Virus record (IMG/VR): IMGVR_UViG_3300009104_000008
Location: 1 to 64,000 of that record
Strand: one strand, 5' to 3'
Origin: a virus
Length of the DNA: 64,000 bases
Both the position numbers and the translations under genes were made by a program. Shown in pieces: positions 23,557 through 54,737 of the stretch; the first letter of the stretch is position 1, and the number at the start of each line of letters is the position of its first letter. The notes beneath the pieces are model-generated. The model made no database searches, was not told the origin of the DNA, and worked only from the letters and a program-made list of their open reading frames with translations.

Positions 23557-24750
23557 TTAAAATTTCCTCGCTAAATTGTGAATATCTCCCCATGACATAT
23601 CTGATAAATCATCTATGCTTGTTGGGAAGCCTTCAGGTAGAGAAACTGTTGATTCCTCTTTTACTATTTGCGAATTTTCTGTTGTTAATGATTTGCGTAG
23701 GTCTGCGAACTGCTCCTTTAGTTCGGCTACTTCTGAACGAGCGTCATATTCATTTCGCTCTACAGTTGCCTTTCTAACTGATTGCTCTGTAGCAAACCTT
23801 TCCTCAAATTGCTTGTTCATACTATCATAAGCAATCTTTTCTAGTTGTTCTGCCTTATACTGTTCGTATGCCTTTTCGACATTCTCTGCAGTTAAGTCAA
23901 GCGTGGTGAATTCAGCCGAATCCCATTCTTTTGAAACCTTTAGTGGAGCAGGTGTTGCAGTTGGCGTTCCACCACTTACTACTTCTTCTCCGGCTTCATA
24001 ATCACGGGTGCTATCTTCATCCAGTGCTTTTTCTGCTTCATCTTCGCCTAAAGACTCGTCAGATAACTCTAACTCCTCTTCGGCATCACTCTCAGTTTCC
24101 ATGTATTCCATGTCTGCCTCAAGTGGCGTTTCTTCCTCCTTTTGGAGTTCATTAACCTGCTTCATTAGGTCATTCAACTCCTCAAGGGCTTTTTCCAATT
24201 TTTCTGTCATTTTCTTTTCACCTTTGTTTTTTTCTTCTTTTAATATGTCAAATTTTGCTTCGGGGTTTATTCCTTTTTCACATATTGTGACTTCGTGTAA
24301 CTCTAACTCGTCAATTTCATTATATTCGCCAAAATCATCTGATTTTCTTTTGCGCTTTGAAATTGCTTGTCCTCCTATACTAAATGAGCGTAATGTGCCT
24401 TTTCTAATACTTCTTGATATTTCTTTGGCCTTTTCAATATCATCTCTTAATTTAATAACAACATAAAATCCTACATCATCAACATGAGATTTATGGACTA
24501 CTCCGTTCTTATCTCTATAAGAATCTACTACTTCTCCTACTTGAACATTTGAATGATTAGACATTACATTTCTGAATTTCTTTTCTCCCATGTAATCTTT
24601 AACTGCTTTTTGTAATGCTTGTAAAGTAATTAAATCATTTTGCTTGTCTACCATTTCTATTGAAGCATATCCACCTATAATTAAATCATCTGACTTTAGT
24701 ATTGTGAAGCCTTTGGTTTCTTGTTCCATTAGAACTGGTTGCTCTAACAT
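23557..24750 (-). CDS. Prohead protease fused to scaffold
   Basis: IGGYASIEMVDKQND, NH, SFSIGG (catalytic Ser), LHEVTICEKGINPEA are HK97-type protease motifs; acidic coiled-coil C-half. Confidence 0.9.
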   Translation of the reverse strand: MLEQPVLMEQETKGFTILKSDDLIIGGYASIEMVDKQNDLITLQALQKAVKDYMGEKKFRNVMSNHSNVQVGEVVDSYRDKNGVVHKSHVDDVGFYVVIKLRDDIEKAKEISRSIRKGTLRSFSIGGQAISKRKRKSDDFGEYNEIDELELHEVTICEKGINPEAKFDILKEEKNKGEKKMTEKLEKALEELNDLMKQVNELQKEEETPLEADMEYMETESDAEEELELSDESLGEDEAEKALDEDSTRDYEAGEEVVSGGTPTATPAPLKVSKEWDSAEFTTLDLTAENVEKAYEQYKAEQLEKIAYDSMNKQFEERFATEQSVRKATVERNEYDARSEVAELKEQFADLRKSLTTENSQIVKEESTVSLPEGFPTSIDDLSDMSWGDIHNLARKF

Positions 24751-24779
24751 GAACTACACTTCGACTTTCACTATATGAA

Positions 24780-27326
24780 CTAAGCGGGGTTGCCTTCGGG
24801 CAGGGGTAAATTTTTATACCTATCTTCAGTAATATCCCATAAACCATCGTCTTCTTTTGATTCTAACATAGTTTGTTTTGTTCCTGTCCAAACAACCCAA
24901 TGCTTTTTATCATTCAAAGGAACGACCCTAAGATGTAATCTAGTGTCAAATTTATCCCCTTGTATCTTAAATTCATGATAACCGTGTCTTTGAACGCCAA
25001 GAGTAATAATTCCTTTATCTAATATTTTACCTTCTCTAGCATTACCTAAAACAACTTTGGCAGGAAATTTATTAGATTTACCAAATAAGTTATAAACATC
25101 AGAAGTATCTTCAATATCTATTAACCACGCTAGTCTTTTTTCATTTACAATATAAATTAATAAAAGATTATCATCTTCAGTAGTTGTAATTGTGAATTTA
25201 CCTTTTTTTGGGTTAATTTTCTCATCTTTTGCTATTGCAGATGGGTTTGCTGAAAATTTATCATTAGCGCGGTCATAAACAATATCTTCTTGTTTAATTA
25301 GCCACTTTTTCAATTTCTTAGAATCTCCATCAAACGCTGGCCCTTCAAAATGTTCAATATAATTTTCTAACACAAATTCTTGTATTGTATCAAATTCTAC
25401 TTGGTCATCCCATTCAATTAATTTATTTTTAATGCCCATTCTTAATTCAGAACGCACACTTTTAAGCGCAATTTGTAAATCTTCTTTCCAAACATCTATA
25501 TCATATAGTGCTTGTTTCTCCATTAAACTATCACCATTAAAACCGTAAATAGTAAATCCATCTAAATTAGATTTCATAAGAATTTCTGCTTCCCCATGTA
25601 TTTCATCAGTAATATACATTTTCTTTACGCCTTTTAATTTATATTGAAATGGCTTATCTAAATCTTCCCAAATTGATTTCTTGGCTTTGTCTGATAACAA
25701 CTCTAAAGTCTCTAATTTATCTGATTGAGTTACTTCAGGGATTTCAATAACCTTTGCTGAAAATAAACTAAAACCTTCTTTAGTTTTCTTTACCTCATCC
25801 ACCTTAACTCTAACAATACTACCCACCTTAACAGATTGCTTAGTATTTAGTGCTTTACCTACAGAAAGATAGGCTTTATCTTTTAATTCTACAGTCTTAT
25901 ATGAACGGGCTTGTTCAGCAGTTAATGGGCCTATACCTAAAGTATATGAATGAAGCCCACTTTTTGTTTCTTTACTATCTAAAATAATAACATCTAAATC
26001 AACAAATTTCTTCCATTTAACCCACTTAGGGTTTTTCTTAGAACCTAACTGGTAAGTAGATTCAATGTCCTTAATTACAACTCCCTCAGAAGCAGGTAAA
26101 TTCATTATTTCCTCCGCATAATCACCTACTTCTTTTATAGAATCTGCAATTCTAGTATCTTTCTTTGAAGGATATGCCAATTCTTCAGATGAATGTTGGG
26201 CATATTGATATAGCAGAATATTAATTCTTTCTCTCAAAGGTTCATCTAATAAATCCTTATCATCATGTTCCATAATATCAAATACATGAAGCCTTAATTG
26301 ACCACCCTCAATGGGCTTCTTAAAAATGTGTGAAATTGTGGCGGCTCTATGAAGTGCTTTACCATTTTTAAATAGCATTAACTCCCCATCTAAAATACAA
26401 TTGCCTATATGTTTCTTATCTAACCTTTCTATTTGTTCTGAACATTTATCAGAAATATCTTTTTGATTATAAGAAAGGATTTTAATTGTTTTACCGTTTT
26501 TATGAATTTGCACTCTCATGCCGTCATATTTTTCTTGAATTACATATTCACCAGAAAAACCTTTCAGTTGCTCTAGGTCTTTTAATTCAAATATCCTATA
26601 CATTGGTTTATTAGGAACTAGGAAATTAATCTCTGACTTCTCAGCCTCGCTTTTCTCAGATTTTTTAATATCTATCTCAATTAACGCATTCCATTCCTTT
26701 TCATTATATTCCTCAAGAAACACCTTTTTTAGTATAGATAAAACACTCTTAAATTTGGTTTTGATGCGCTTAGTATCTTTATCTTCCCCATAGTGCTCTG
26801 AAATGTATAAGGGTATATCTTTCATCTCTAAATCTAATCCATTTGCATTTTGAGTTATTTCATCGGGCTTAAGGCCGTGTTTTTCCCATGCCGATGCGGG
26901 GATTGGTAGGGAATGTTTGCGAAGGGCATAGTGAATAAAGGCGGCGAAGACACTAGAATTACTGAGTAATACATCAATTACTTCTTCGCCTAACTGATTA
27001 GCGAATGGGTCGCCAACTTCTTTAGAATCAAACCTCATTTCTTTGACTGCATCATATAGCCTCTTGGCTTGAGTTGATTCAGGGTTTTCAGCCCCATCAT
27101 CAAATAAGTTATCTTCATCAATGTATTTCTTTAATACTCTAGTAAAAGAATCTAAACCATCAAACGACTCACGAATAGACTTAACTGTTGCTCTCCATTT
27201 TTTACCGTATTTATTTGGGTCTTCTTTTGCAGATAAGTAAGAATAGCGAGTCCTCTCAAAGAAATCTAAAACACGCTTGGATAGCGCATTTTTTTCTTTT
27301 TCAAAGGAAACGCCAGATATAGCCAT
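24780..27326 (-). CDS. lig: ATP-dependent DNA ligase with N- and C-terminal extensions
   Basis: EKYDGMR (motif I), LDGEL, VFDIM, EGVVIK, WVKWKK, then an OB-like domain. Confidence 0.9.
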   Translation of the reverse strand: MAISGVSFEKEKNALSKRVLDFFERTRYSYLSAKEDPNKYGKKWRATVKSIRESFDGLDSFTRVLKKYIDEDNLFDDGAENPESTQAKRLYDAVKEMRFDSKEVGDPFANQLGEEVIDVLLSNSSVFAAFIHYALRKHSLPIPASAWEKHGLKPDEITQNANGLDLEMKDIPLYISEHYGEDKDTKRIKTKFKSVLSILKKVFLEEYNEKEWNALIEIDIKKSEKSEAEKSEINFLVPNKPMYRIFELKDLEQLKGFSGEYVIQEKYDGMRVQIHKNGKTIKILSYNQKDISDKCSEQIERLDKKHIGNCILDGELMLFKNGKALHRAATISHIFKKPIEGGQLRLHVFDIMEHDDKDLLDEPLRERINILLYQYAQHSSEELAYPSKKDTRIADSIKEVGDYAEEIMNLPASEGVVIKDIESTYQLGSKKNPKWVKWKKFVDLDVIILDSKETKSGLHSYTLGIGPLTAEQARSYKTVELKDKAYLSVGKALNTKQSVKVGSIVRVKVDEVKKTKEGFSLFSAKVIEIPEVTQSDKLETLELLSDKAKKSIWEDLDKPFQYKLKGVKKMYITDEIHGEAEILMKSNLDGFTIYGFNGDSLMEKQALYDIDVWKEDLQIALKSVRSELRMGIKNKLIEWDDQVEFDTIQEFVLENYIEHFEGPAFDGDSKKLKKWLIKQEDIVYDRANDKFSANPSAIAKDEKINPKKGKFTITTTEDDNLLLIYIVNEKRLAWLIDIEDTSDVYNLFGKSNKFPAKVVLGNAREGKILDKGIITLGVQRHGYHEFKIQGDKFDTRLHLRVVPLNDKKHWVVWTGTKQTMLESKEDDGLWDITEDRYKNLPLPEGNPA

Positions 27327-27341
27327 TAACTACACTCTCAA

Positions 27342-27797: not shown

Positions 27798-27798
27798 T

Positions 27799-28038
27799 TC
27801 AATTCACCCCTAATTGTTCAACGATTTTATGTATGTCATCCCATTCCATCTTAGAAATAATATCACCTGTTGGGGTTGCATTATTACCCATTGCTGGTTT
27901 AGGAGTATTAACCTTAACATAACCAGATTTCATTAATAGGTTATCTTGATTATACACCGTTTCTTCTAAACTTTTTACTTTTTCTACTAACTCTTTTAAG
28001 AGCATTAACATTTCATTTTCTTCTGTCATTTTATTCAC
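27799..28038 (-). CDS. Small coiled-coil protein with scaffold-like C-terminal motif
   Basis: Ends SKMEWDDIHKIVEQL, similar to the scaffold end SDMSWGDIHNLARKF. Confidence 0.65.
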   Translation of the reverse strand: MNKMTEENEMLMLLKELVEKVKSLEETVYNQDNLLMKSGYVKVNTPKPAMGNNATPTGDIISKMEWDDIHKIVEQLGVN

Positions 28039-28039
28039 C

Positions 28040-28360
28040 TCAATATCGTGGGTCTATTCCCAATTCCTTATAATCTCTTTCCATCAATTTTTCTAATAAA
28101 CGAAATTCTTTTGAGTTATCATCAAATGGGTTTTCATTCCAAATTTTTTCAAGTATTACTCTTCCACTATTTTGATATTTATCCTGCATATCATTTAGTT
28201 CTCTAAAATCTGCTTCTCTGCTTTCCATATATTCCTTCACTGATTTTTCTGTAGTTTGTCCTTCTTCAAATTCTGCTTGATTTAGTTCTAACCAAGTTTG
28301 AAACGAATACTCTTTCTTAATTGTTTTATCTTTTTTAACTGTTGTTTTCCAATCATTCAT
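28040..28360 (-). CDS. Hypothetical protein, W-tag family
   Basis: Likely start 28360, MNDWKTTVKK. Confidence 0.6.
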   Translation of the reverse strand: MNDWKTTVKKDKTIKKEYSFQTWLELNQAEFEEGQTTEKSVKEYMESREADFRELNDMQDKYQNSGRVILEKIWNENPFDDNSKEFRLLEKLMERDYKELGIDPRY

Positions 28361-28607
28361 GTTCTTCATCTTCCTCATATTCAAAATCTTCTAACAGCAT
28401 ATCTTCATATTCAGATAATCCTATTCTATATGCTGTGGAATCTACTTGTTCTAAAACCCAAGATGGAGAATAGGATAAACTACCTATTTTAATTTCACCT
28501 TGTTCATCTAACGCTTCATTAAATAAATCTCTAATATCTGATTCACTATATTCCTCACGAAACGCTTTCTCTTTTTTATCTTCTTTTAATATATCTTTCC
28601 AACTCAT
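28353..28607 (-). CDS. Acidic hypothetical protein, W-tag family
   Basis: Starts MSWKDILKE. Confidence 0.7.
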   Translation of the reverse strand: MSWKDILKEDKKEKAFREEYSESDIRDLFNEALDEQGEIKIGSLSYSPSWVLEQVDSTAYRIGLSEYEDMLLEDFEYEEDEEHE

Positions 28608-29149
28608 TTCATATCACCTTTACTTTTTGGATATACAATCCCTCTTAATTGATTGTATAGAGTTTCATAATCTTTTCTTAATTCTGCGGCAGATGCTACA
28701 ATATCTAAATTAGTTTCTTCAAAACCTTTCATCTTTTTAGATAATTTTTCATCTGACTTAATCAAATCTAACTTTTGCATTTCATCTATTAAATTAGATA
28801 GTTTAGTTAAATCTTGTCCAAAGTATTCAGTTGGTTGAGCAGACTGTAATACTTTCTTTAATCTCTTTTTCTCCTTACCTTCTAATTTAGAAAGAAGACC
28901 AATATCTGCCTTTTCAAGTGTTTTCTTTTTATCTGGCATAAATAAGAAAGGGTCAAGGTCTTTAGTCCAATCTTTAGTAGGTAAATCTAATTCATTATAA
29001 CAACTCTCACAAAGGGTTGCGCTTTCTCCTTTCTTGCCCGAATGAAAGTCTTTTGGCATAGACTCGACAGGATGGGATTCTCCATCTTCAATTCTATCCC
29101 CACATTCATCACAAAATTCATCTGCTTTTAATATATCTTTCCAACTCAT
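28604..29149 (-). CDS. Zn-finger hypothetical protein, W-tag family
   Basis: Starts MSWKDILKA; CDEC...CESC. Confidence 0.7.
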   Translation of the reverse strand: MSWKDILKADEFCDECGDRIEDGESHPVESMPKDFHSGKKGESATLCESCYNELDLPTKDWTKDLDPFLFMPDKKKTLEKADIGLLSKLEGKEKKRLKKVLQSAQPTEYFGQDLTKLSNLIDEMQKLDLIKSDEKLSKKMKGFEETNLDIVASAAELRKDYETLYNQLRGIVYPKSKGDMK

Positions 29150-30507: not shown

Positions 30508-30740
30508 TTATTTTCAGTTCGCCTTTTTTTCTTAGGCATTAGTATAACATCAGGAATATCATTAGAATCTGGAATCTTTTTCTCAACAGTTGTAGATATA
30601 TCAATACCTACTGCGTCTAAATTCCGATTTATTTCTACTCTGTTATTATTGTGCATTTCTGCTCTTGCGTCTGCTAATTGCTTTTCTAATTCTTTTACTT
30701 TTGTTTCATCCATAATCTCACCTATTTCTTTTTTCTTCAT
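30501..30740 (-). CDS. Hypothetical protein
   Basis: In operon. Confidence 0.6.
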   Translation of the reverse strand: MKKKEIGEIMDETKVKELEKQLADARAEMHNNNRVEINRNLDAVGIDISTTVEKKIPDSNDIPDVILMPKKKRRTENKW

Positions 30741-30978
30741 TTAAATTTCTTGTTGCCCTATCAATTAAACTTTGTTTTGGTTTAGGAAAATTACTAGCAT
30801 ATCTAGCATCAGGCAATGCAGGGCTTAAAGGGTTTTGAGTATACATTAAACAACTCCCATTATCACTAATAGTTACTTCTGACAAAGAACATTTAAATCC
30901 TTTATTATGTTTACATTTAGAAGCATAACAAACTGTTACTCGGCATTCAGCCTTATTTACTATATCTTTCCAACTCAT
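30718..30978 (-). CDS. Cys-rich small protein, W-tag family
   Basis: MSWKDIVNKA then C...C...CKHN...C...C (DUF1540-like spacing). Confidence 0.65.
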   Translation of the reverse strand: MSWKDIVNKAECRVTVCYASKCKHNKGFKCSLSEVTISDNGSCLMYTQNPLSPALPDARYASNFPKPKQSLIDRATRNLNEEKRNR

Positions 30979-30979
30979 A

Positions 30980-32632
30980 TTAACCTACTCTCCTTTCAGT
31001 TCTTTTATCCACATTTTCATTTCCAGCGTCTTTAGGTAAACCGCTAAATCTCTTGTCTGGCCCTACATTCATAGAGGGTTTATTCCTTGTGGCTGGCGGG
31101 TTCTCTTGGGGCTTACTTTTATTACCGGATAATGCTTCTTCTTGAAGTTGTCCTAATTGGGATGCATCTACATTAGTTCCTGCATAAGGGTCTGTTTCAA
31201 CTTCTCCCTCTTCTTCTTTTGGCCCTTGCATTTCAGGCTCAGGTTTAGTATAAGAAAATCTACCTTCATCATCCATTTCTATTTCAAATCCTAAATTTTT
31301 AATTGATGCAGCAATATTAACTTGCATTTCTCTTAACCTTAATTTAGCCATTTCATCTTCTTCTTCGGATGGTGGAAGTTTTAATTTCCAATCAGTAACT
31401 CCAAATTCTTTAGTTACAAAGGGGAATACATAATTATTCCAAATTGTCTGAGCCATTTCTACTGCTCGATTAGTAACAAGTATCTGCATACCTTCATTAT
31501 TTAGCCCACCGCTTGCAGAGTTATCGGCCATGAAGATTTTACTTACACCATAAAAACCAGAAACTCTATCCCTTAAGTCATCCTTCACAGATACATAATC
31601 CATTTCTTTTAGGCTATCCATGAATTTAATCCATTCAATAGACCCTTTCCCACCCTCTGATTCTATTCCCATGACAGGGATAAAGTGAGGGTCTTGTTCC
31701 ATCTTCTCTTTGACTCCACGCCAAAATGATTTCATAGATTCAATGTTTCTAGTTTGAACTGCTAACAATCCTCTCGGCATTCTTGCCTTAGTATAAGATG
31801 AATTGATATAGTTATCCATAGCAATTAAAGTGGTAACGCTATTCCATAATGTAATTATAGGAGATAGACCATATAAACGGCTTGGTGTATATTTACTAAA
31901 GTGTAATACTTCTCCTTCTAAGAAATATTGTTCTTCCCCGTTTACTCTATTAACATAATGAATAGGATAAAGAACACTTGTATCGCAATGCTGGCAACGC
32001 CCTACCGCATCGTCTGAAATAAAATCACGATGCCTTAAACAAGTAAATCCGTTATTCCCCCGCTCTCCTTTTTCATCAGCATAAATATGCATTGTTACGG
32101 GGTCGCCTCGATATACTTCATTAATGCGATGCATTGCGATTTCTGAATCGTTATCTAAGAAATATTCCTTTACTAGCACTAAATAAGCATCATCCATTAT
32201 GTTCAAATCATCTTCCATTTCTTTGAGAACATCAATAAACATTTGTTCTGAACTATTTATATATCCATCTAATAATTTTAGAACATATTTAAGTTGTTTA
32301 GGGTCGGGTTTACTTAACTTAGTCGAACCACATTCCACACATTCTACAGTAGGGGCTTGGTGTTCTTTACAACAACTATCACATTTAACTACGAATTTTT
32401 CTTCCCAAAAATAACCTCGCCTAAATACTTCATTCTTAAGTTGAGTTACACAAGTTCTAACAACAACAGATTGATTTGCTATATGATAAATAACTGGAGA
32501 AGTTAACATATAGGAGTTGTCTTTCTCTTGAATTCCCGGATTAAACACTTTCCTATCTACGGGCGTAGGAGTGCTTCTTCTGAATAAGTTAGTAATACTA
32601 AACCTACGCTTTTCTTCTACCATAGTTGCCAC
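30980..32632 (-). CDS. Portal protein
   Basis: EVLHFSKYTPSRLYGLSPI, MPRGLL, RVSGFYGVSKIFM portal motifs; two Cys/His insertions. Confidence 0.9.
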   Translation of the reverse strand: MATMVEEKRRFSITNLFRRSTPTPVDRKVFNPGIQEKDNSYMLTSPVIYHIANQSVVVRTCVTQLKNEVFRRGYFWEEKFVVKCDSCCKEHQAPTVECVECGSTKLSKPDPKQLKYVLKLLDGYINSSEQMFIDVLKEMEDDLNIMDDAYLVLVKEYFLDNDSEIAMHRINEVYRGDPVTMHIYADEKGERGNNGFTCLRHRDFISDDAVGRCQHCDTSVLYPIHYVNRVNGEEQYFLEGEVLHFSKYTPSRLYGLSPIITLWNSVTTLIAMDNYINSSYTKARMPRGLLAVQTRNIESMKSFWRGVKEKMEQDPHFIPVMGIESEGGKGSIEWIKFMDSLKEMDYVSVKDDLRDRVSGFYGVSKIFMADNSASGGLNNEGMQILVTNRAVEMAQTIWNNYVFPFVTKEFGVTDWKLKLPPSEEEDEMAKLRLREMQVNIAASIKNLGFEIEMDDEGRFSYTKPEPEMQGPKEEEGEVETDPYAGTNVDASQLGQLQEEALSGNKSKPQENPPATRNKPSMNVGPDKRFSGLPKDAGNENVDKRTERRVG

Positions 32633-32678
32633 TCTCCCTTATCAAGACGATAACGCAATTCCATATTAATGTTTGGAT

Positions 32679-34049: not shown

Positions 34050-34057
34050 CTCATGCT

Positions 34058-35497
34058 TTAAAAATTTAAACCCAATAAACCCGCATTTGGGGCAGTTTGT
34101 TGGCTAGTTGGGCCATCGAATATCCCTATGTCATCGAGCAGTATGAAGGTATCTGTAGCCACTTGAGAAGCGGCGTTAGCAAGTGCTAATCCCATCACCA
34201 AATCGTCATGCGCACCTACTCCTTCAAACCTTCCAGATTCAGTAATAGAGAACATTGAGAGTTCTTCTATTAATGCGCTTGTCATTTTTTTGCTATTATT
34301 ATCCCCATAAGGGAAGATTAACTTACCATTTTCAATGTTCATTTGTAAGTTGAGAATTATCTCCTGTTTCTTTTTTCTAGTTGTATTAAAATCCTTAATA
34401 TTCAAATCAGATATATTTCGTAATTCTTGAGTAAATGCCTTAGCAAAGGTATTAGTTTCATATAATATTGCTTCGGGTTGATAGAGTTTCCCAATTAATC
34501 TAATTTTTTCTATATTTTCTCTAAACTCTACATTCTTAGACCTATCAACATGAACAATCGCCTTATTCATTTCTTCATCTACTTCTAGCACCATAATTAC
34601 ATTATAGTCACCATCAGTAGATATAGCAGGGTCTACACCAACATAATATTTATATCCCTTATCCCTTCTATTGCCTAACTTAAGTATATATTCTTTATTC
34701 TTACAAGCATTAACATAGTCAGGGTCGAATAAAGCAGTTCCGGTTGATACAGGAATACACAAGTATTCTCTTGTGAATTTCAACGAGCCTATTTCTGACT
34801 TTCTTTGCATTAAAGCATCATAAGCCCAACGCTCAGGCCATAGTGGTTCATTAAGGGAATTTAGACAAGGGTATTTCCTTACAGTATAGGCTTCATTTTC
34901 TTCTAATTGTGAGAAAATATCAGTATATGTAAAGGGAGTGCCTATCATTCTTAATGAAGCAGTATGATGAAGAGTAGGAATCATATCTCCAAAGAACCAA
35001 TCTGTTACTCTTTGAATACCCGACATACTAAACTCCTTCAAGGGGTCGTCAATAATAATCTCTTGAGGGTGAAGACCACGAATCTGAGAACCGATTGAAC
35101 GCTCTAATATAGCATTACCATTAGTTAATTGAATATTTCCGATAGCCCATCCTCTTGAAGGTTTATATTTTTTAAGGGCTGGTAAGTTAAAGTATCTATC
35201 AATCTCTCTCATATGAACAAGTGTCTGCTTTTGGTTAGAGGATATGTATAGCATTTGAAATGGGGGCTCTTCAAACACTAATTTCCAAACTACCCATGAA
35301 TGCATAAATACTGATTTTCCGTGGTCACGACTACATACAATTACAGTTCTATCAGTTGTTTCCATTAATTCTTTCCACTCTTGCATATAGTCAGGATATT
35401 GCATTCCTAATACATTTTGAAAGAAATATGGGAATGAATTTTTAGATAACTCCATGTCCATTGCAGACATAAAATCTAATTGCGCTACTTCAGCCAT
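34058..35497 (-). CDS. terL: Terminase large subunit
   Basis: Walker A SRDHGKS, Walker B IIIDD, IGTP, nuclease YVGVDPA and HDDLVM. Confidence 0.92.
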   Translation of the reverse strand: MAEVAQLDFMSAMDMELSKNSFPYFFQNVLGMQYPDYMQEWKELMETTDRTVIVCSRDHGKSVFMHSWVVWKLVFEEPPFQMLYISSNQKQTLVHMREIDRYFNLPALKKYKPSRGWAIGNIQLTNGNAILERSIGSQIRGLHPQEIIIDDPLKEFSMSGIQRVTDWFFGDMIPTLHHTASLRMIGTPFTYTDIFSQLEENEAYTVRKYPCLNSLNEPLWPERWAYDALMQRKSEIGSLKFTREYLCIPVSTGTALFDPDYVNACKNKEYILKLGNRRDKGYKYYVGVDPAISTDGDYNVIMVLEVDEEMNKAIVHVDRSKNVEFRENIEKIRLIGKLYQPEAILYETNTFAKAFTQELRNISDLNIKDFNTTRKKKQEIILNLQMNIENGKLIFPYGDNNSKKMTSALIEELSMFSITESGRFEGVGAHDDLVMGLALANAASQVATDTFILLDDIGIFDGPTSQQTAPNAGLLGLNF

Positions 35498-35501
35498 ATA
35501 A

Positions 35502-36053
35502 TCATCTCCTATATATTAATACTTTATTACCATGCTTAAGAGTCATCCACCAATTATTAAGTTTCAACTTTTGTAATGCGCCAATAGTGCCGTTTGCCTT
35601 TGCTTCTTCTAATTCATCTAAAATATCTTCTGGTAATTTTTCTTCATTGATTTCTTTAAAACCATACTGTCTATATTTTTCCATTGCTTTAGGGTGTGAA
35701 AAGGCTACCACCATTGTTTTACTTCCTTTTTGTTTTAATAATTCATTAAGAAGCAAATCGAATACTCCATCATATCCATCGCTTTTTCTATATCCCCTTC
35801 TAACATGAACGCCAGAACCCAATAAGAAATTTTGAAACTTAGAAAAACCTACTACGCCAATTGGTTGTTCCGTTTTTGTTAAAAACGCAACAAATTGTGT
35901 TTCAGGTGAATTAGCAAATATTCCATCAGTAGGTAACTTCTGGTATCTATTTATTCTAGTTTTATATTCATTATACCCATCATCCTGAAATACCTTAACG
36001 GCATTTTCTTCAGACATATCTTCAAAATATATGTCTTCTTGAGTAAGTTTCAT
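35502..36053 (-). CDS. GNAT-like acetyltransferase, C-terminal W-tag
   Basis: PIGVVG, GVHVRRGYRK, AMEKYRQYGFKE; near C-terminus NWWMTLKH. Confidence 0.6.
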   Translation of the reverse strand: MKLTQEDIYFEDMSEENAVKVFQDDGYNEYKTRINRYQKLPTDGIFANSPETQFVAFLTKTEQPIGVVGFSKFQNFLLGSGVHVRRGYRKSDGYDGVFDLLLNELLKQKGSKTMVVAFSHPKAMEKYRQYGFKEINEEKLPEDILDELEEAKANGTIGALQKLKLNNWWMTLKHGNKVLIYRR

Positions 36054-36057
36054 TTAA

Positions 36058-38772
36058 TCACCTAAAGTTTGCTTTAATAAAATACACCACTTCAGCAGAA
36101 ACACCGTGTTTTCTACCTATGTCTTTGTATGCACCAAATTCAGAATTAATATTTTCTACATCTAAAGCAGTTAAATTAATATTATAATCCTCTTTAGCAA
36201 CATCAATTGTTTTAGTTATATCATCAAAACTATCAATGTTTCCTAATCCATAATATATAGGTTTATTTATCATCTTTCGTATTGAATCATGAGCCTCAAG
36301 AATTTTATATTCTAAATCACTTTTAATTAATAATTTCTTTCTAATAAGATTATCATAAGCCTGAATAACTCGGCCTATTAAATCTTCATCTTTTGTTTCT
36401 CCTTCTTCGGTTGCTGCACCACGACCTAATCCTTTATCTTGTTTTCTTCCCGATAAATGTTTATCAGTTCTAAATAATGACTCTTGTTTCTTTATGGTTT
36501 TAATTAAAGCCGCAAGCGGATAAATTTGTGCTTCTCTTTTACTTTGATATTTCTTATATAGTTTATTTACATTTACACCATTAAATTCTAAATCAACATC
36601 AAGGTTATTCTTAGCACGAATCTCATAAAGAGATGCTCCAAATTCTTCAGCAATATCATCTGTATGTTGGAAATCATATATTCTATCTAATTGCTTTGCT
36701 AGTTGTTCCATTGAAATTTTAATTCCCTGTAAATTTTCTCCAACTTTAATATTTCCTAACTGAGTTAATAAATTTGCTATCTGTTTTAACGCCTTTTTTG
36801 GCAGTATTGCTGTTCCCATATCATTCATTCTATGGGTTAAAGTAGATAAAGCATCACCAGTAGATTCTGCATTTTCTGTTATAACTTTTAATTGCTTATT
36901 AGTTATAAACGCAAATTCAGTTTCATCAAAAGGCATATATTCGCTTTGTAATGGCCTAACCATAGAAGAATAAAGCACATCAATAAGTTCTTTTAATTGT
37001 TCTATAAGAGCATCAACGCTTTCATCAGAACTTTGCTGTCTACCCCTATCAAAAATATCTGCTAGGCCTTCTCCCTTTCTTCTAGCAACAAAAGATTGAT
37101 ACTTGGTTCTTCTTGCGCTTTTTTCTCCCACTTTACCAGAAGAAATATCAGTAGCAAGTTCGCTCCTACTTTTCCCACCCAAATCATATAATTGTGTAAC
37201 TAATTCAAAATAGGTCTTTAATTTCTTTTCAATTTGTTTTTCTCTTGGTATTTTAAATTCAGACATAACCTTATCAGTTAATGGTAAATAATAATTTGCA
37301 TCTGCTTCTCCAGAAAATGCTTCTCTACTTAAACCCTCAATATATTTATCTAATTCTTCTAATTCACTTTCATCTAATTCAACAGTTAATCTTTTACTTG
37401 CTGATTTTATTCTCCTGTGTATTTTAGATATATCTTTTTTAAACATCGGAACTCTATCAAATGCTCCTTGTGACCAAGCATAATAAAATAGCGGGTCAGT
37501 TTCCTTTGTTGTTTTGATATTATTTATCCCATCTAATATTGATTTGACCTTTTCAGTAGTGGGCATTATTTCTGCCCTTTCAGTTTCAGTTCGGGTTTCT
37601 TCTACTCCTTTACCCCTTGCTGTTATAGCACCCTCTTCTGGGTCTTTATCTATATCTTCATCATCAGCAAAAACAAACTCAACATCATTAGAATCAATTG
37701 ATAAAAAGTCTTCTAATAAAATTGCTGCTGTATAATTTAAATTGTCTTTATCTACTTTTTGCTTTGGAACACTAACAATATAATTATCTGCTTCTGTTAA
37801 TTTATTAGCCTCAATTTCTTTAATTAAATCAACAATTATTGTTTCTTCTGCATCTGCTAATATTTTTAATAAACCTTTTAATGCCCTATTTTGGATATAA
37901 ATAAAATCATCAAATGATTTATGTTTCTGCCGCCAATATTCATAAATTTTATCTCTCCTATCAAATGACTTTAGAGATAATGAACCAACTAATAAATCAA
38001 CTTCGCTTGTTTTTATTTCATGTTTATTAGCACCAGCAATATATTTTAATTTAGACACGAATGGCTTAAGTCTACTTGCAAGTGTAGTATATTGATTCAT
38101 AGTTTCTGTTAATACATCAATGTCTAATTTAATGTTATCGCGGGTTGAATATTCTGTTTTCCCAAATTCATTAAGTGTTATTTCATGAACTGATACAGGA
38201 GAAACTCGCTTTAGTTTTTCATATGAAATTTTCATTCCTCTCACTTTAAATTTCTTAAGCACATCTTTAATTGCATCTTTTTGAACTTGTGATGAAGTAA
38301 TCGGCCCTATATCCTTATAAGAAGCAGATAATAAATTGTAAAATACAATTTGTAATTCTCTCTTTTTTGATGTAGCCATTAGTGTTAAATTATAACTATC
38401 TAACATATCTCTAACCATAGATTTGTATTTATGTATATCTGCTTCTTGAATACTTGATTTACCTTCTAATATTTTAGCAAGAACTTGAGGGGTAATAATT
38501 AGTTTATTGCCGCTACTATCAACTTGAATTAAACCCTCTGGTTTTTTAGATTCAACATCTGCAATAGACACACTTAGATACTTAGCAGATTTATCTTTAA
38601 ATATAGTGGATAATAATTCTCTTTTATTAGGCCTAAATCTTCCCTCTAATATTTCTGGATAAGTTTGTTTTAAATAATCATTAATTCCTCTATCATCTGT
38701 AAGATACATCTCTAATATTTTATCAACTGCCTCATGGTCAGTTTTTATTTGGTTATATATTGCTTGTGTCAT
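36058..38772 (-). CDS. Large hypothetical protein (904 aa), possible C-terminal HTH
   Basis: Charged and helical; ends YKDIGRKHGVSAEVVYFIK. Confidence 0.7.
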   Translation of the reverse strand: MTQAIYNQIKTDHEAVDKILEMYLTDDRGINDYLKQTYPEILEGRFRPNKRELLSTIFKDKSAKYLSVSIADVESKKPEGLIQVDSSGNKLIITPQVLAKILEGKSSIQEADIHKYKSMVRDMLDSYNLTLMATSKKRELQIVFYNLLSASYKDIGPITSSQVQKDAIKDVLKKFKVRGMKISYEKLKRVSPVSVHEITLNEFGKTEYSTRDNIKLDIDVLTETMNQYTTLASRLKPFVSKLKYIAGANKHEIKTSEVDLLVGSLSLKSFDRRDKIYEYWRQKHKSFDDFIYIQNRALKGLLKILADAEETIIVDLIKEIEANKLTEADNYIVSVPKQKVDKDNLNYTAAILLEDFLSIDSNDVEFVFADDEDIDKDPEEGAITARGKGVEETRTETERAEIMPTTEKVKSILDGINNIKTTKETDPLFYYAWSQGAFDRVPMFKKDISKIHRRIKSASKRLTVELDESELEELDKYIEGLSREAFSGEADANYYLPLTDKVMSEFKIPREKQIEKKLKTYFELVTQLYDLGGKSRSELATDISSGKVGEKSARRTKYQSFVARRKGEGLADIFDRGRQQSSDESVDALIEQLKELIDVLYSSMVRPLQSEYMPFDETEFAFITNKQLKVITENAESTGDALSTLTHRMNDMGTAILPKKALKQIANLLTQLGNIKVGENLQGIKISMEQLAKQLDRIYDFQHTDDIAEEFGASLYEIRAKNNLDVDLEFNGVNVNKLYKKYQSKREAQIYPLAALIKTIKKQESLFRTDKHLSGRKQDKGLGRGAATEEGETKDEDLIGRVIQAYDNLIRKKLLIKSDLEYKILEAHDSIRKMINKPIYYGLGNIDSFDDITKTIDVAKEDYNINLTALDVENINSEFGAYKDIGRKHGVSAEVVYFIKANFR

Positions 38773-40568
38773 GTTATCACCTGTATTGCCCCTAAACTCT
38801 GTAGTTTTACTAGGGGTTCTATTACTCCCTTTTCTTTAATAGAATAATTTGTATCAACTAAATGCCTAATTGAATCATTAACTTCTTCACGCATATTTTT
38901 TCTAATTTTAGCATAGTGATGATTATTAACAAGTTCATACATAATTTTGTCAAATAATTCACCTTTATCATCCCTACTATTTCTTCGCTTAAATCGTGTC
39001 CATAATTTAGAAAATTCTGATTTTTCTTCTTCATCCAAATCATCTAAAGTAATTAATATATCTTTGAATTGTCTAAATGTAGCATCAACTGTTTCAGTTG
39101 TTTTATTTGGGCCAGCAGAATAAAGTTCTAATAGTGTTTGTTTAATGTCTTTATCAGGAGTGCCAAATAATCTAGATAATAACCCCTTATGGCTTGTAGT
39201 AACTGGCATAACAACTGTTGCTTTTTCACCATCTAATTTCCATTTTTTAAACATAGCATCCCACGCTATTTCTCTTTCGCTATCTTCTTCTAACCATTTT
39301 TCAAAATCTTGGCCATCTTCAAACCCATATTCTATAGCCATAGTATTATCTAATTTATCTAATTTATCATAATCTTCTATTGGGATTTTATATATCTTAA
39401 CATCAAGTTTAGAATTCATAATAGCAAACTGGCGTTTCTCATCAGTATTTAAGGAATCTATAAAACGAAGGTCTATTTTATTTCTTTTATTCTTTACTTT
39501 TTTATCTGAATAATATTTTTGCACCTTAGCCATTTTAGTTTGTAAATTAGAATATTCGGATTCTTGTTTGTTTTCTCTTAATATGCGTAGTGCTTTTATT
39601 TTAGCAATAGATTCTTTAACAGGTGGATTTTCAAAAGTATTGGTATCATATTTTAATTCAGGTTCTTTTAAGATATAATCTAATGCTCTTGGTAATTCTG
39701 TATAGTCCTTACCAAATACCCCTCCTAATTCAGGAAGTAAATCCTTTCTATATTTTCTTGGAACATTACCAAACACAACATATTTAATATATTTATTTAG
39801 GTTTTCTGCACTAAGACCCGAACCTCGCATTAAGTATTTGGGTTTAGAAGGGGCTGCAAACCCGTATTTCTCTTGGAGAACTGCGGATAACTTTTTTCTA
39901 TCTGTGTCATTTAATTCCTTAAGACCATTTAATATTTTATTCTTATTTTTCTTTACAAGTGATTTTATGAAATCAGTATTTTGCCTATTAACTTCTTTAG
40001 TAAGTAACCCTAACATTTTATCTACTTTACCACTATTCAAATCTTCTATTGCTGCTTTCATGCTAGGTTCATATTTAGCACTAGTAGTTTCCATCTCTTC
40101 CAGCATATCAATAGTTTCTGCAACTCTCTCTTCAAAACCCGGAACTTGAGATAGAGGATATTTGTCTTTATCTTTCATAAACTCTTCAAGTGCTCTTTTT
40201 AGATTTGCTCTTCTTAATGGTTTGATATCTTCAATAAAAGTATCTCTAGCGTTATCAGTAGTCATTTGATTTAAGTAATCTTCGACTCCTTTATTAATAT
40301 CCATCTCCCCTACTTCAAACTCTCTTTCTTCCCCTAAATGATTAAACTTGTAGTTAAAATTAACCATAACAAAACCATGAGCATCTTCTACAGAATCATT
40401 TATTGCATCTAAAACATCGTCATCATTATCTAAATCAGTAGTGCTTGGAATGTAATAGACTCCAACATCAGGTAAAGGCATTCTATCTTTTTCATACTCC
40501 GTAGCATCCCATTCAATATCATACACATATATTTCATATGTGGATTTTAGGGTAGCAAACCAAGTCAT
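38769..40568 (-). CDS. Large hypothetical protein, W-tag family
   Basis: Starts MTWFATLKS. Confidence 0.7.
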   Translation of the reverse strand: MTWFATLKSTYEIYVYDIEWDATEYEKDRMPLPDVGVYYIPSTTDLDNDDDVLDAINDSVEDAHGFVMVNFNYKFNHLGEEREFEVGEMDINKGVEDYLNQMTTDNARDTFIEDIKPLRRANLKRALEEFMKDKDKYPLSQVPGFEERVAETIDMLEEMETTSAKYEPSMKAAIEDLNSGKVDKMLGLLTKEVNRQNTDFIKSLVKKNKNKILNGLKELNDTDRKKLSAVLQEKYGFAAPSKPKYLMRGSGLSAENLNKYIKYVVFGNVPRKYRKDLLPELGGVFGKDYTELPRALDYILKEPELKYDTNTFENPPVKESIAKIKALRILRENKQESEYSNLQTKMAKVQKYYSDKKVKNKRNKIDLRFIDSLNTDEKRQFAIMNSKLDVKIYKIPIEDYDKLDKLDNTMAIEYGFEDGQDFEKWLEEDSEREIAWDAMFKKWKLDGEKATVVMPVTTSHKGLLSRLFGTPDKDIKQTLLELYSAGPNKTTETVDATFRQFKDILITLDDLDEEEKSEFSKLWTRFKRRNSRDDKGELFDKIMYELVNNHHYAKIRKNMREEVNDSIRHLVDTNYSIKEKGVIEPLVKLQSLGAIQVIT

Positions 40569-40570
40569 AA

Positions 40571-40762
40571 TTATTCCTCTGTATATCTATCTAATGATAT
40601 TTGTTTTGTAGAATCATCTAATTTTTGTGGCTTAGATTTTGAAGGCTTCTTTTTGAACCATTGTTCTATAGGAACTTTTGAAACATGAGCACCTTCAACT
40701 AACTCTTTAGGTAACTTACCTTGTTTAGTTTTATCTTCTTTAAGTGTATTAAACCAACTCAT
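40571..40762 (-). CDS. Small basic protein, W-tag family
   Basis: Starts MSWFNTLKE. Confidence 0.65.
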   Translation of the reverse strand: MSWFNTLKEDKTKQGKLPKELVEGAHVSKVPIEQWFKKKPSKSKPQKLDDSTKQISLDRYTEE

Positions 40763-41415: not shown

Positions 41416-41443
41416 TTTATCACCTATCTCGCACCGTGTGTCG

Positions 41444-41725
41444 TCAATAACTTGAGTCTGGTGGGCCTTTCCTTTTCATTTCATCAATACTATATTGTAT
41501 TTCTTCTTTTACAGTATTTAGAAAAGACTCAGGAATATCTTCAAACTTAAATCCATGTCTAAATTCATACATGAATTTATCAGTTAAATCTTCAATAATA
41601 TAGTCATATACTTCACCTTCATTTAGAGGCATATTACTTTTTTTCCACATTTCTTTCACAACTTCTCTATATTTATTCGCATCTTCTAATTCATCATACT
41701 TTCTTAATGTATTTTTCCAACTCAC
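41444..41725 (-). CDS. Hypothetical protein, W-tag family
   Basis: Likely GTG start at 41725 with GGTGA RBS, giving MSWKNTLRK. Confidence 0.65.
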   Translation of the reverse strand: MSWKNTLRKYDELEDANKYREVVKEMWKKSNMPLNEGEVYDYIIEDLTDKFMYEFRHGFKFEDIPESFLNTVKEEIQYSIDEMKRKGPPDSSY

Positions 41726-42846
41726 GCAATCACCTTCATTACAGTTCTCCAATCTCTAACATCTCTATTAGCACTTGTTAATTTCTCACCCTCGTCTTCT
41801 TTAGGTTGTTCTTCTTCTTTCTCTTTATTTTTCATATATGCAGATTCAGGGTGAGGTTTCCATCCTGCTAATTTAGCCATATGATTGAGTTGTCTTCTTG
41901 AGATGTAAATATAAAAGTCCTCTACTTGGCCCGGAGTTCCTTTTGCAGCCAATAATGTTTTAACATTTTCACTTTCTTTATTATTTCGGACATTATATGG
42001 TATCTTCATTAATCTAGTCCTTGCAGCCTTTGTTGAGAAATTGCCCATTTTAGTTGTATATCTTGGGTCTTTTACCATTCTATCCATAGCAGTCTTTACT
42101 TCGGACAATCCTTCATATGCGAATTTAGCAGCACCTGCACTTTCTATTGCTACAGGGTCACTTTGAATAATATGATGTTTTACATTTAATAATCCTTTAA
42201 CCGCTTCTGTAACAACTGCAGTTAATCCCTGAGTTGAAAAGGGTTCTTTAGTTCCATCTCCATATACTGCTTGCCACATTGGAGGCTCTGCTGTTCCCTT
42301 TTGTTGATTCCACCAAGTATCGTCTACAGCCTCTAATTCATTTTTATCCTTGTAAGTTTCTCTATATTCAACATAATCATCTGTGCGATAATGCCCGTAG
42401 ATAGGTTTCTTTATTGGCTTTCCACCCCTAATACGAACAATTCCCTCAAATGCTATATTTCTTGGATTTAAGTCGCTTTGTTCTCCACCATAATTATTCA
42501 GTGTTTGAATAATGCCTTCTAATTGTTTCATCTCTGATGGCTTAAATTTGGGTTTCTTTGCTAAACTCGCTAAGAATTTTAATTCCTTCCCAATTCCGGG
42601 AGTTTCTTTAGGGCCAGAATTACCCATTATTCTTCCTGTTATTCCGTGTTCGGCTAACATTTCATATAAACTCCCCTTAAACTTACTAATTCCCATATCA
42701 GTTGCTGAAATGCCTCTTGCAGTTGTTTCCCATTCTTTCCATAATTCTACAAATGATTCTCCTTTGTATTCAACGCGAGAAGTTCCTTTACCCATAGTAA
42801 TTTTAGGTTGTCTTTTTGTTACACTTTTTGCATCTTTCTTTGCCAC
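41722..42846 (-). CDS. Hypothetical protein, C-terminal W-tag
   Basis: GTG start with GGAGGTG RBS; ends RDWRTVMKVIA. Confidence 0.7.
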   Translation of the reverse strand: MAKKDAKSVTKRQPKITMGKGTSRVEYKGESFVELWKEWETTARGISATDMGISKFKGSLYEMLAEHGITGRIMGNSGPKETPGIGKELKFLASLAKKPKFKPSEMKQLEGIIQTLNNYGGEQSDLNPRNIAFEGIVRIRGGKPIKKPIYGHYRTDDYVEYRETYKDKNELEAVDDTWWNQQKGTAEPPMWQAVYGDGTKEPFSTQGLTAVVTEAVKGLLNVKHHIIQSDPVAIESAGAAKFAYEGLSEVKTAMDRMVKDPRYTTKMGNFSTKAARTRLMKIPYNVRNNKESENVKTLLAAKGTPGQVEDFYIYISRRQLNHMAKLAGWKPHPESAYMKNKEKEEEQPKEDEGEKLTSANRDVRDWRTVMKVIA

Positions 42847-42949
42847 AAATACACCTCCCCATTACTGATTGATTATTGAATAGATTACTTGTTCCTGCGG
42901 AAGTTGTTGTTACTGCGCCAGTCATTTTTAATTGGTCAAACCAATTCAT
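42803..42949 (-). CDS. 48-aa ORF, W-tag family (not in ORF track)
   Basis: MNWFDQLKMTGAVTTTSAG...CICGKERCKKC; ATGA overlap with the upstream stop. Confidence 0.55.
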   Translation of the reverse strand: MNWFDQLKMTGAVTTTSAGTSNLFNNQSVMGRCICGKERCKKCNKKTT

Positions 42950-43206
42950 TTCTTATTCCTCCTTTTAGCCCTACGAGCCTCTCGCTTCTTTCTATTTCTC
43001 ATTTTCTTAGAAGGTGTTTTTGATGCTCCCATTTTTTTATCGTAATACTTTTGCTGATTAGCAGTAAACGGGCGTTTATGATGTTCACTACCAAACCCAC
43101 AATCTTTACAATGGTGAGTATATCGCTCATGTTTTGGCGTTTCTTCAAAATTCTCCCCACGACATAAATCGCATTTTTTATTTTTTATTACAGTAAACCA
43201 CTTCAT
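42946..43206 (-). CDS. Basic Zn-ribbon protein, W-tag family
   Basis: MKWFTVIKN; CDLC...CKDC; R/K-rich tail. Confidence 0.65.
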   Translation of the reverse strand: MKWFTVIKNKKCDLCRGENFEETPKHERYTHHCKDCGFGSEHHKRPFTANQQKYYDKKMGASKTPSKKMRNRKKREARRAKRRNKK

Positions 43207-43257
43207 TGTCTAAATCTCCCCCAACACCATATTCCATATAGTAAATCCCAAATAAAT

Positions 43258-43521
43258 CTAATCATTATTATTCAATATATTCCTAGCCGTCTGACAGCAA
43301 AATCTAATTTTTTGAGTTGATTGTAATGTCCAAAAAGAATCTTTTTCTAATTTAAATTTATTTTCAATATGATTACATAATTCATATCTACTCATTAATT
43401 CAAAATCATCATCTATTTTTAATCCTAAAATTGGACCTACTTCATGTTCTATTCTTTTATCCAGCCAAACATAAGTATTACCCATAAACGAGATTAACTT
43501 TTTAATTAACCATTGTTTCAT
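43258..43521 (-). CDS. Hypothetical protein
   Basis: In operon. Confidence 0.55.
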   Translation of the reverse strand: MKQWLIKKLISFMGNTYVWLDKRIEHEVGPILGLKIDDDFELMSRYELCNHIENKFKLEKDSFWTLQSTQKIRFCCQTARNILNNND

Positions 43522-43919
43522 ATTAACCCTGCCTGTCTTTGAATATCTTTATTCTCAATCATTTTTTTGAATATTATTACTTGCACATTATACATTGCAA
43601 TCCTATTAATCATAGTTTCAGTGTTTGCTATTTGATAATATTCTTCTTTGTGTCTGCCCATATATTTATTGTCCGGTAATTCTATTACTTGATACGCGTC
43701 TGGTAATTTAATGGGTTCTAAAGTGTCCGGTAGATTTTCATTATACTTTTCAACTAATTTAATTAAGTATTTTTTATGATTATCTAATTGGTCATGAATA
43801 TGGGCTATTAATTTCTTTTCTGAACTTACTGTATATTGGTTCATCAATTTGCTGCGGGCTATTAATTCCCTAAATGGAAGTGCATCAACATCTTCTTTAA
43901 AAACATTAAACCACTTCAT
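43518..43919 (-). CDS. Hypothetical protein, W-tag family
   Basis: Likely ATG 43919, MKWFNVFKE, after GGGGGA. Confidence 0.6.
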   Translation of the reverse strand: MKWFNVFKEDVDALPFRELIARSKLMNQYTVSSEKKLIAHIHDQLDNHKKYLIKLVEKYNENLPDTLEPIKLPDAYQVIELPDNKYMGRHKEEYYQIANTETMINRIAMYNVQVIIFKKMIENKDIQRQAGLI

Positions 43920-54653: not shown

Positions 54654-54737
54654 TGGCCAAACGAAATTGTAAAGTTTGTGGATATGGTTTAGCACGAAAT
54701 GCTAGGTCATGTTCACAATGTAGAAAGAGGAATAGAA

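Follow-up and report, generated by a model that had tools for sequence, protein, structure and literature searches.

The stretch of DNA analyzed here, referred to below as the window, comes from a magrovirus, an archaeal virus of the ocean, and is the first 64 kb of the 87,384-bp IMG/VR record IMGVR_UViG_3300009104_000008 (G000). Its late arm occupies the minus strand from ~47.9 kb down to position 1, and the replication genes lie on the plus strand from ~48 kb. Between 28040 and 43952 the late arm holds 20 genes, ten of which begin with variants of one short peptide, here called the tag, with the consensus M-S-W-x-D-[IV]-[LIV]-K. An earlier note on this DNA had listed these ten N-terminal examples and two C-terminal ones, in a 374-amino acid (aa) open reading frame (ORF) and a GNAT acetyltransferase, and had spoken of about 12 otherwise unrelated tagged proteins; all of the examples were located in the window sequence at the starts and C-termini that it gave. 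The automatic gene caller dropped one of the ORFs (42803-42949) owing to overlap, but it is present in the sequence. The tag bearers of the window are listed below; all are on the minus strand, so that the higher coordinate of the first ten is the tagged start.

28040..28360, minus strand: 106-aa ORFan beginning MNDWKTTVKK, with the Trp at residue 4; relatives in its family begin MSWQNILK or MSWKEILK
28353..28607, minus strand: 84-aa acidic ORFan beginning MSWKDILKE, with a single homologue, in L001
28604..29149, minus strand: 181-aa protein beginning MSWKDILKA, in which the tag and a Zn-ribbon module are fused ahead of a conserved helical domain
30718..30978, minus strand: 86-aa Cys-rich protein beginning MSWKDIVNKA (DUF1540, PF07561, E 5.7e-05)
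38769..40568, minus strand: 599-aa ORFan beginning MTWFATLKS, without a match in Pfam or PHROG
40571..40762, minus strand: 63-aa ORF beginning MSWFNTLKE (from the sequence)
41444..41725, minus strand: 93-aa ORFan with a GTG start, beginning (M)SWKNTLRK; the start overlaps the upstream stop by 4 nt
42803..42949, minus strand: 48-aa ORF beginning MNWFDQLKM (from the sequence)
42946..43206, minus strand: 86-aa Zn-ribbon-like basic protein beginning MKWFTVIKN (from the sequence)
43518..43919, minus strand: 133-aa ORFan beginning MKWFNVFKE (from the sequence)
41722..42846, minus strand: 374-aa protein (p374) with a C-terminal tag, DWRTVMKVIA and then the stop, preceded by an acidic low-complexity linker
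35502..36053, minus strand: GNAT acetyltransferase with a C-terminal tag-like tail, NNWWMTLK (weak Pfam match; Foldseek; AlphaFold2 (AF2) model)

Relatives of the 599-aa ORFan begin MNWFSALKS or have the short form MTNLLKALP, and in the GNAT the string NNWWMTLK stands 16 residues ahead of the C-terminal end. A six-frame scan of the rest of the window found no N-terminal tag, save near misses. One of these is a 165-aa replication-arm ORF (62794-63291, plus strand) that begins M-E-N-K-W-K-D-E-I-R from an ATG at ~62812; its Trp is at residue 5 and its hydrophobic pair is incomplete, and it is the sole tag-like N-terminus off the head arm in the window. The other is a spurious 45-aa ORF. Two more tag-like strings on the plus strand may be due to chance: an isolated E-K-W-F-E-G-L-K-K-S at the C-terminus of a 44-aa ORF (52293-52427), and G-R-W-D-K-I-L-K-R ~28 residues past the preceding in-frame stop in a 399-aa ORF (54699-55898). 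Outside the window, a 293-aa replication-arm ORF of the same record (71480-72361, plus strand) has an internal start, M-S-W-N-T-S-E-N-K, with W3 but no other tag residue.

A portal query returned 122 relatives from IMG/VR, and the best 80 of these (69-96% identity) were kept, each as a locus that extends 10 kb to both sides of the portal gene. The 80 loci (L001-L080) and G000 form the close set of 81 sources, whose 1694 ORFs of at least 40 aa fell into 336 clusters by BLAST. Five complete genomes (G000 and four relatives, 636 called genes) and a distant set of 96 loci (1370 genes), with portal relatives of only 33-47% identity, were examined alongside. None of the 80 related loci is without a tag; the median is 5 and the maximum 13, and there are 8-20 tag bearers per genome. 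Tagged ORFs make up 409 of the 1694 in the close set, and 408 of them are on the portal strand; the same scanner, run on the distant set as a control, gave 5 hits in the 1370 genes. A strict 6-mer, W-x-x-[ILVTM]-[ILVMF]-K, was observed 317 times in the first 5 residues, where 2.3 occurrences are expected from its internal rate. Trp accounts for only 1.24% of residues, yet 53 of the 636 genes in the complete genomes have it at position 3, as do 294 of the 1559 portal-strand genes of the close set when read from the first start codon. Among genes selected for W3 only (101 families, family-weighted), residue 2 is Ser in 63%, residue 5 Asp in 52%, residue 6 Ile or Val in 77%, residue 7 Leu, Ile or Val in 96% and residue 8 Lys in 85%. 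Refined, the motif reads M-[S>T,N,K]-W-[K/E/F/Q]-[D>N,E]-[I/V]-[L/I/V]-K. Chance is excluded as its source, and the observation is real and far stronger than the earlier note was able to show.

The position of the tags is best described relative to the head genes of the window, which are as follows.

22167..23543, minus strand: major capsid protein (MCP), 458 aa, recognized by tblastn to the annotated MCPs of HVTV-1 and HCTV-1
23557..24750, minus strand: prohead serine protease (Peptidase_S78, Pfam) with a long acidic or coiled scaffold-like tail and the C-terminus MSWGDIHNLARKF
24780..27326, minus strand: 848-aa protein with an ATP-dependent DNA ligase domain (Pfam PF01068, E 4e-31)
27799..28038, minus strand: conserved 79-aa helical protein (p79), a candidate small scaffold, in which the C-terminal motif MEWDDIHKIV stands 6 residues before the end
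30980..32632, minus strand: portal protein, core, without a W-tag (Pfam PF04860, below the family's cutoff); the anchor for locating relatives
34058..35497, minus strand: terminase large subunit (TerL), core, without a W-tag (Pfam Terminase_6C)

Several labels of the earlier note needed revision at this point. Upstream of its scaffold, the 848-aa gene is an ATP-dependent DNA ligase by Pfam and the portal is the gene at 30980-32632. The scaffold itself (23557-24750) does have a scaffold-like tail and ends in the C-terminus that the note had given, but the protein is the prohead protease, called protease-scaffold below. Likewise, the MEWDDIHKIV motif reported for ORF 27799-28038 is there, but it is not the exact C-terminal end. 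The MCP is ~24% identical to the annotated HK97-like MCPs of the haloarchaeal tailed viruses HVTV-1 and HCTV-1, with the tblastn match running from residue 58 on. Magrovirus groups A and B have been described as carrying a ligase within the structural module and a second one in the replication arm (Philosof et al., PMC5434244), and the window, with one ligase embedded among structural genes and another in its replication arm, matches this description. The same account describes a LAGLIDADG nuclease gene inserted in the structural module (Philosof et al., PMC5434244). A 456-aa ORF between TerL and portal (32679-34049, minus strand) stands in a comparable place; it has no Pfam match, and an I-D-S-D-G-F-I stretch makes it LAGLIDADG-like by eye only.

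Gene maps place the tags in two islands, one before p374/p218/p904/TerL and the other between portal and p79, and both end just ahead of the series p79-p151-ligase-protease-MCP, in which the ligase gene is placed between tag island and protease. The tags lie within ~5-21 kb upstream of the MCP gene. In the five complete genomes, the strict tag is on 62 of the 214 MCP-strand genes upstream of and including MCP, on none of the 125 MCP-strand genes downstream of it (the tail side) and on none of the 297 opposite-strand genes (Fisher p = 5e-33). The tag keeps strictly to the head-upstream section of the late arm. The earlier note had asked whether the motif might be equally common on non-structural ORFs, and these counts uphold the confinement that it proposed. 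Core genes are never W-tagged: this holds for portal, TerL, ligase, protease, MCP, p904, p453, p151 and p79.

The proteins that do carry the tag have little else in common. It was found in ~130 clusters (134 in one count; 126 with at least half of their members tagged), between which identity is 0.23-0.77 at residues 2-8 and 0.06 past residue 12; beyond about residue 10, unrelated families share nothing, which bears out the description of the bearers as otherwise unrelated. Pfam matches were obtained for 8 of 129 family representatives (PAP2, DUF1540, DUF5754, DUF6943, Zn ribbon and three weak others), and a search of PHROGs with the ten largest gave no match, so that almost all tagged families are ORFans. 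The tag bearers are soluble: a transmembrane (TM)-like segment was detected in none of 126 tagged families and in 5 of 103 untagged ones. Among the tagged proteins are soluble PAP2-like phosphatases with N-terminal tags (L014:2121-2714, L046:11730-12530 and L067:11730-12698), which have the K-x6-R-P, P-S-G-H and S-R-x5-H-x3-D motifs and lack a TM segment. A Tat-like signal was considered and rejected. The Tat consensus is S/T-R-R-x-F-L-K, the twin Arg being followed by a hydrophobic h-region; the tag has no R-R at W and W+1, and a TM-like hydrophobic stretch is absent from all 126 families. Single-locus families are frequent among tagged (75/126) and untagged accessory families (67/104) alike. 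Because untagged accessory families turn over about as fast, high turnover is not a property of the tag.

The tag is also portable: within its ~130 unrelated families it is seen at N-termini, at C-termini and where proteins have been fused. In the p374 family, an acidic linker is followed by D-W-R-x-I-[MV]-K and 2-3 further residues, and 11 of 14 members have the strict motif in their last 20 residues. In the GNAT, W168 is invariant in 20 homologues of 21-99% identity, most of which end 0-4 residues past the K/R. The AF2 model of the GNAT is folded over residues 1-163 (mean predicted local distance difference test score, pLDDT, 78.7), with Foldseek matches to SpeG, GCN5, Ard1 and NAA50 (E ~1e-5), whereas residues 164-183 have a pLDDT <50 and no regular structure. 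The tail is thus a linear motif appended to the fold, and the idea that it forms a structural strand of the fold was dropped, the segment being unstructured although W168 is invariant. In relatives, tag-like motifs are also found at fusion joints. A soluble PAP2-like domain is joined via K-W-Q-D-I-L-H-K-K to a basic module, which other genomes encode as a tagged gene of its own (67 aa), and a GNAT is fused to the same module through its W-motif. The reverse is seen in the 181-aa protein at 28604-29149, whose helical domain of ~105 aa is in 55 relatives a free-standing tagged protein of ~110 aa, with W3 invariant in 56 sequences; here the ancestral tag has been internalised at the fusion joint and its Trp lost. 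AF2 models residues 88-176 of this protein as helical (pLDDT 74-85) and gives residues 1-84 a pLDDT <50. Members of tagged families that were scored as untagged often have Phe in place of Trp (M-S-F-M-D-V-L-K-A) or a short form, M-T-N-L-L-K-A-L-P.

Motifs related to the tag occur in core head proteins. The 75 members of the protease-scaffold family end in [ML]-S-W-x-[DE]-[IL]-[HNA], and the 64 members of the p79 family have M-[DSEN]-W-x-[DE]-I-[HGNRS] near the C-terminus (each judged on the 14 commonest C-termini listed); the two families thus share one near-C-terminal motif, M-S/D-W-x-[DE]-I-H. When a scoring matrix made from the tags was scanned over ~478,000 non-N-terminal positions, the C-termini of protease-scaffold and p79 were among the best 7-130, with rank 7 for p79 (Met included) and rank 30 for the scaffold. 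Other top matches were the ligase at ~residue 42 and the C-termini of p374 and the GNAT. The 848-aa ligase has an internal W-[RK]-x-T-V-K-S at ~residue 43, and 40 internal W-motif matches were counted over the 78 members of its family. The resemblance to the scaffold C-terminus that the earlier note had drawn is found over M-S-W-x-[DE]-[IV] but fails thereafter, the scaffold having His where the tag has L-K. The MCP's N-terminus, MTGYTNTLKD, is tag-like with Tyr replacing Trp (M-S/T-G-Y-x-x-T-hydrophobic-K-D in 64 relatives), and a conserved GNALLK-S follows at ~residue 28.

The distant groups retain part of this pattern. Their protease-scaffold ends in N-M-S-W-[DE]-E-V-H-x-L-A and their p79 in S-W-E-E-I-H-E-M-A. 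Their MCPs lack the Lys of the tag-like N-terminus and keep [ED]-L-L-K-[AS]-D at ~residue 34, and in all magrovirus groups L-L-K-[AS] or L-L-K-[SG] is found near the N-termini of MCP and protease. Among the 1370 distant genes there are ~20 N-terminal tags of the form M-N-P-x3-A-W-x-hydrophobic-L-K, and this motif is also present inside a protein of ~600 aa. A looser N-terminal form, x(1-5)-hydrophobic-hydrophobic-K-[ASG], occurs in 113 of 1286 portal-strand genes of the distant groups, compared with 3 of the 297 opposite-strand genes of the five close-clade genomes. The conservation of L-L-K in MCP and protease, together with these distant N-termini, makes hydrophobic-L-K the old element that is shared and a candidate protease site, the S-W-x-D part being an elaboration particular to the clade of the window. 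The slot of the ligase gene is occupied in the distant groups by a giant protein of 1860-1930 aa. These giants were considered as cargo polyproteins cut at such sites, which found no support, since they have 1.36 hydrophobic-hydrophobic-K-[ASG] sites per 1000 residues and other proteins have 2.06.

We read the tag as a terminal docking peptide that recruits a variable set of soluble proteins into the procapsid, a reading to which the gene and sequence comparisons lend an even chance. The tag is probably a short amphipathic helix, with the Trp and two hydrophobic residues on one face and the Lys closing it. Accessory proteins made from the head-gene strand, directly upstream of the head genes, would carry the tag, bind through it to a conserved component of the assembling procapsid and thereby be enclosed in the head. 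That component would most likely be whatever reads the M-S-W-x-[DE]-I-H tail shared by protease-scaffold and p79, and candidates are the HK97-fold MCP, through its inner face or N-arm, and the core of the scaffold. We infer both the partner and the encapsidation of the bearers from these similarities. Removal of the tag after the Lys by the S78 prohead protease is a real possibility that we would nevertheless not count on. Clipping there is weakly indicated by the hydrophobic-L-K conserved near the N-termini of MCP and protease in all groups, and the residue following the Lys is Ala, Gly or Ser in 54% of tagged proteins of at least 300 aa. The putative arsenal would include the GNAT, the soluble PAP2-like phosphatase, Zn-ribbon proteins and ORFans of 600-870 aa; that such cargo would be delivered into the host with the DNA is rather doubtful. 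Taken in full, the proposal of a transferable 8-residue address code that loads a rapidly changing set of 8-20 soluble proteins into an HK97-fold capsid for delivery with the DNA, a code derived from or convergent with the scaffold tail, must be regarded as tentative.

Several points weigh against the docking reading. The residue after the Lys is Lys, Glu, Asn or Arg in the small tagged proteins and Ala, Ser or Gly at the candidate sites of MCP and protease, a difference that weakens the case for one shared cleavage rule. The scaffold has His-x-Leu where the tag has Leu-Lys, which may mean separate binding sites for the two motifs, and sister groups keep the scaffold and p79 tails with almost no W-tags, so the scaffold motif alone does not imply cargo tags. 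AF2, applied to the 181-aa protein, gives the tag only a low-confidence helical turn at residues 4-7 (pLDDT ~33). A basic character, as of internal DNA-binding proteins, was looked for and not supported: median isoelectric points are 5.5 for tagged and 5.7 for untagged accessory proteins, the basic fraction is equal, and this equality of charge gives no sign of such a role. Ten to 20 cargo species, some of 600-870 aa, would also be a heavy load for the capsid of an 87-99 kb genome, and middle or late genes with no place in the virion could be what the island upstream of TerL contains. Finally, judging by titles and abstracts, the literature holds no magrovirus virion proteome that we could find.

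Part of the same evidence would fit other explanations. The tag might dock accessory proteins not in the capsid interior but on another partner shared in the late phase, such as the portal-terminase complex, an assembly or replication factory, a viral or host chaperone or a host target, with the proteins acting in the cell and remaining unpackaged. What the data show is indeed a terminal peptide that is portable and has a common reader, without naming that reader, half of the tags are upstream of TerL among genes of no known role, and the tag departs from the scaffold tail after W+3. We nonetheless consider this unlikely, given that the tag is missing from the 297 opposite-strand (replication or early) and 125 tail-side genes, that a related terminal motif is otherwise restricted to protease-scaffold and p79, the two likeliest internal procapsid proteins, and that MCP, portal and TerL, whose need for a chaperone would be greatest, have no W-tag. 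A processing signal without a targeting role, that is, an N-terminal propeptide ending in hydrophobic-L-K and cut by the prohead or another protease, would explain why this part of the tag is the most constant (position 7 and the Lys above) while the Trp can be replaced by Phe or dropped (MSFMDVLKA, MTNLLKALP), and it agrees with the LLK-[AS] or LLK-[SG] of MCP and protease in every group and with the loose N-terminal form of the distant portal-strand genes. However, a cut after the K/R of p374 or of most GNAT homologues, which end 0-4 residues further on, would serve no purpose, a Lys is missing from the corresponding place in the scaffold and p79 tails, and the residue after the Lys in the small proteins is unlike that at the MCP and protease sites. 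Moreover, prohead proteases are generally active inside the procapsid, and their substrates would still need targeting there. Processing as the main function therefore has little probability in our estimate.

The two remaining alternatives concern the DNA and the Lys. If the tag were a nucleic-acid feature, either a translation-initiation or coupling context or a recombination site for shuffling cassettes, the peptide would merely accompany it. Of 322 distinct tag starts, 180 have AGT as their second codon, whereas AGT supplies 24% of Ser codons overall (7467/31155), and T is the last base in ~85% of second codons, counted on the top-ten list; an overlap of 4 nt with the upstream stop, as ATGA, is seen for 155 of 398 tagged starts, three starts in the window have 18 identical bases, and tagged modules are found fused at tag positions. 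The AGT bias and the ATGA overlaps suggest that the Ser preference comes in part from start-stop overlap or common ancestry, and they point to tight translational coupling along the tag islands. Yet only ATG-AGT-TGG is fixed. Past it the DNA varies but the class of amino acid stays the same: position 7 uses ten codons (TTA, CTA, TTG, CTG, CTT, CTC, ATT, ATA, GTA and GTT), the Lys is AAA or AAG and the Asp GAT or GAC. No upstream DNA shared by tagged starts was found. C-termini also preserve the motif, and so does the scaffold tail, whose Ser is coded by TCA, TCT, TCG, AGT and AGC; homologous recombination, moreover, needs more than nine conserved bases. With synonymous and class-equivalent codons all in use and upstream DNA not shared, selection acts on the peptide, in line with the reading of the earlier note, and a DNA-level element was rejected as the main cause; we regard it as very improbable. 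The conserved Lys might instead be a modification site, either a hydrophobic-K-x-[DE] acceptor for ubiquitin-like conjugation or the target of the GNAT encoded in the head module, and 5 of the 10 tags in the window read hydrophobic-K-x-[DE]. Across families, though, Asp and Glu together make up only ~35% at K+2, which led us to discard a SUMO-like acceptor. The GNAT was likewise discarded as reader or modifier of the tag, since 20 of the 81 close loci have it, none of the 96 distant ones does, and it is missing from G003 and G005, which have 15 and 20 tags. The scaffold and p79 motifs, in addition, have no Lys at that position, and a modification site would come as a great surprise.

The interest of the docking reading lies partly in the genes that it would explain. 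Magroviruses are among the most abundant archaeal viruses of the surface ocean (PMC5434244), and most of their genes are ORFans. One 8-residue label that marks about a quarter of the genes in the area of the head module turns otherwise uninterpretable genes into one testable functional class. The tag is not mentioned in the main text of two magrovirus papers (PMC5434244, PMC11706807), whose supplements might hold annotations, and no report of capsid targeting in archaeal viruses was found in the literature. If correct in full, the proposal of loading and delivery would describe the first such protein system of an archaeal virus, with a repertoire larger than that of phage T4. The docking reading, if correct, would single out the proteins with which an uncultured virus might act early in host takeover and counter-defence. 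It would also provide a very short natural loading tag for HK97-fold shells, and it would mean that the logic of the T4 capsid targeting sequence (CTS) and of encapsulin cargo peptides is at work in archaeal tailed viruses as well.

Encapsulins use a short terminal peptide, at either end, to direct diverse cargo into an HK97-fold shell. They have no portal, terminase or DNA, their peptides are rich in Gly, Ser and Leu and lack Trp, and one shell usually takes one or a few types of cargo. The magrovirus tag resembles this arrangement in being a terminal peptide on genes beside that of an HK97-fold shell, and it differs in its Trp-based consensus and in the presence of portal and TerL. Capsid-incorporation tails at the C-terminus are also known from lambda C and Nu3, from the staphylococcal 80alpha scaffold and from SaPI1 CpmB, and HK97 gp4 reportedly has one. 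For the prohead protease gp245 of SPN3US, a C-terminal targeting role has been proposed (PMC7411985). The C-terminal motif shared by protease-scaffold and p79 is what would be expected of such a shell-anchoring tail (HK97, lambda, SPN3US, 80alpha). Unlike in those systems, the copied motif is mostly N-terminal here, on many accessory proteins, and has diverged (L-K for H-x-L), and its binding is a prediction.

The closest functional parallels are found in phages P1 and T4. The N-terminal signal of P1 DarB suffices to bring both this large anti-restriction protein (250 kDa) and a reporter into the capsid (PMC9024508), a precedent that makes large cargo feasible. The P1 Dar proteins are described as having no shared consensus (PMC9024508), whereas here one consensus extends over ~130 families. 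The T4 internal proteins bear a short N-terminal CTS that binds the prohead core and is removed by gp21 (PMC7411985), and they have been called "a highly diverse set" in which only the targeting sequence is conserved (PMC3012670). Like the tag, the T4 CTS (IPI-III, Alt) is a short N-terminal peptide on diverse proteins whose genes vary between relatives, and the closing residues of the tag, too, may be the cutting motif of the head protease. The two have no sequence likeness, and they differ in length (~10-20 residues in T4, 8 here) and in the number of bearers per genome (4 and 8-20). T4 employs the gp21 protease and a gp22 core, whereas the archaeal virus has an HK97/S78-type protease fused to its own scaffold tail; the tag, unlike the CTS, can stand at a C-terminus as well and mimics the tail of the scaffold. 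What has been demonstrated in T4, namely targeting, cleavage and ejection, would be a prediction for the magrovirus tag. By analogy, the tag would work like the T4 CTS and the P1 DarB signal while being a member of neither family.

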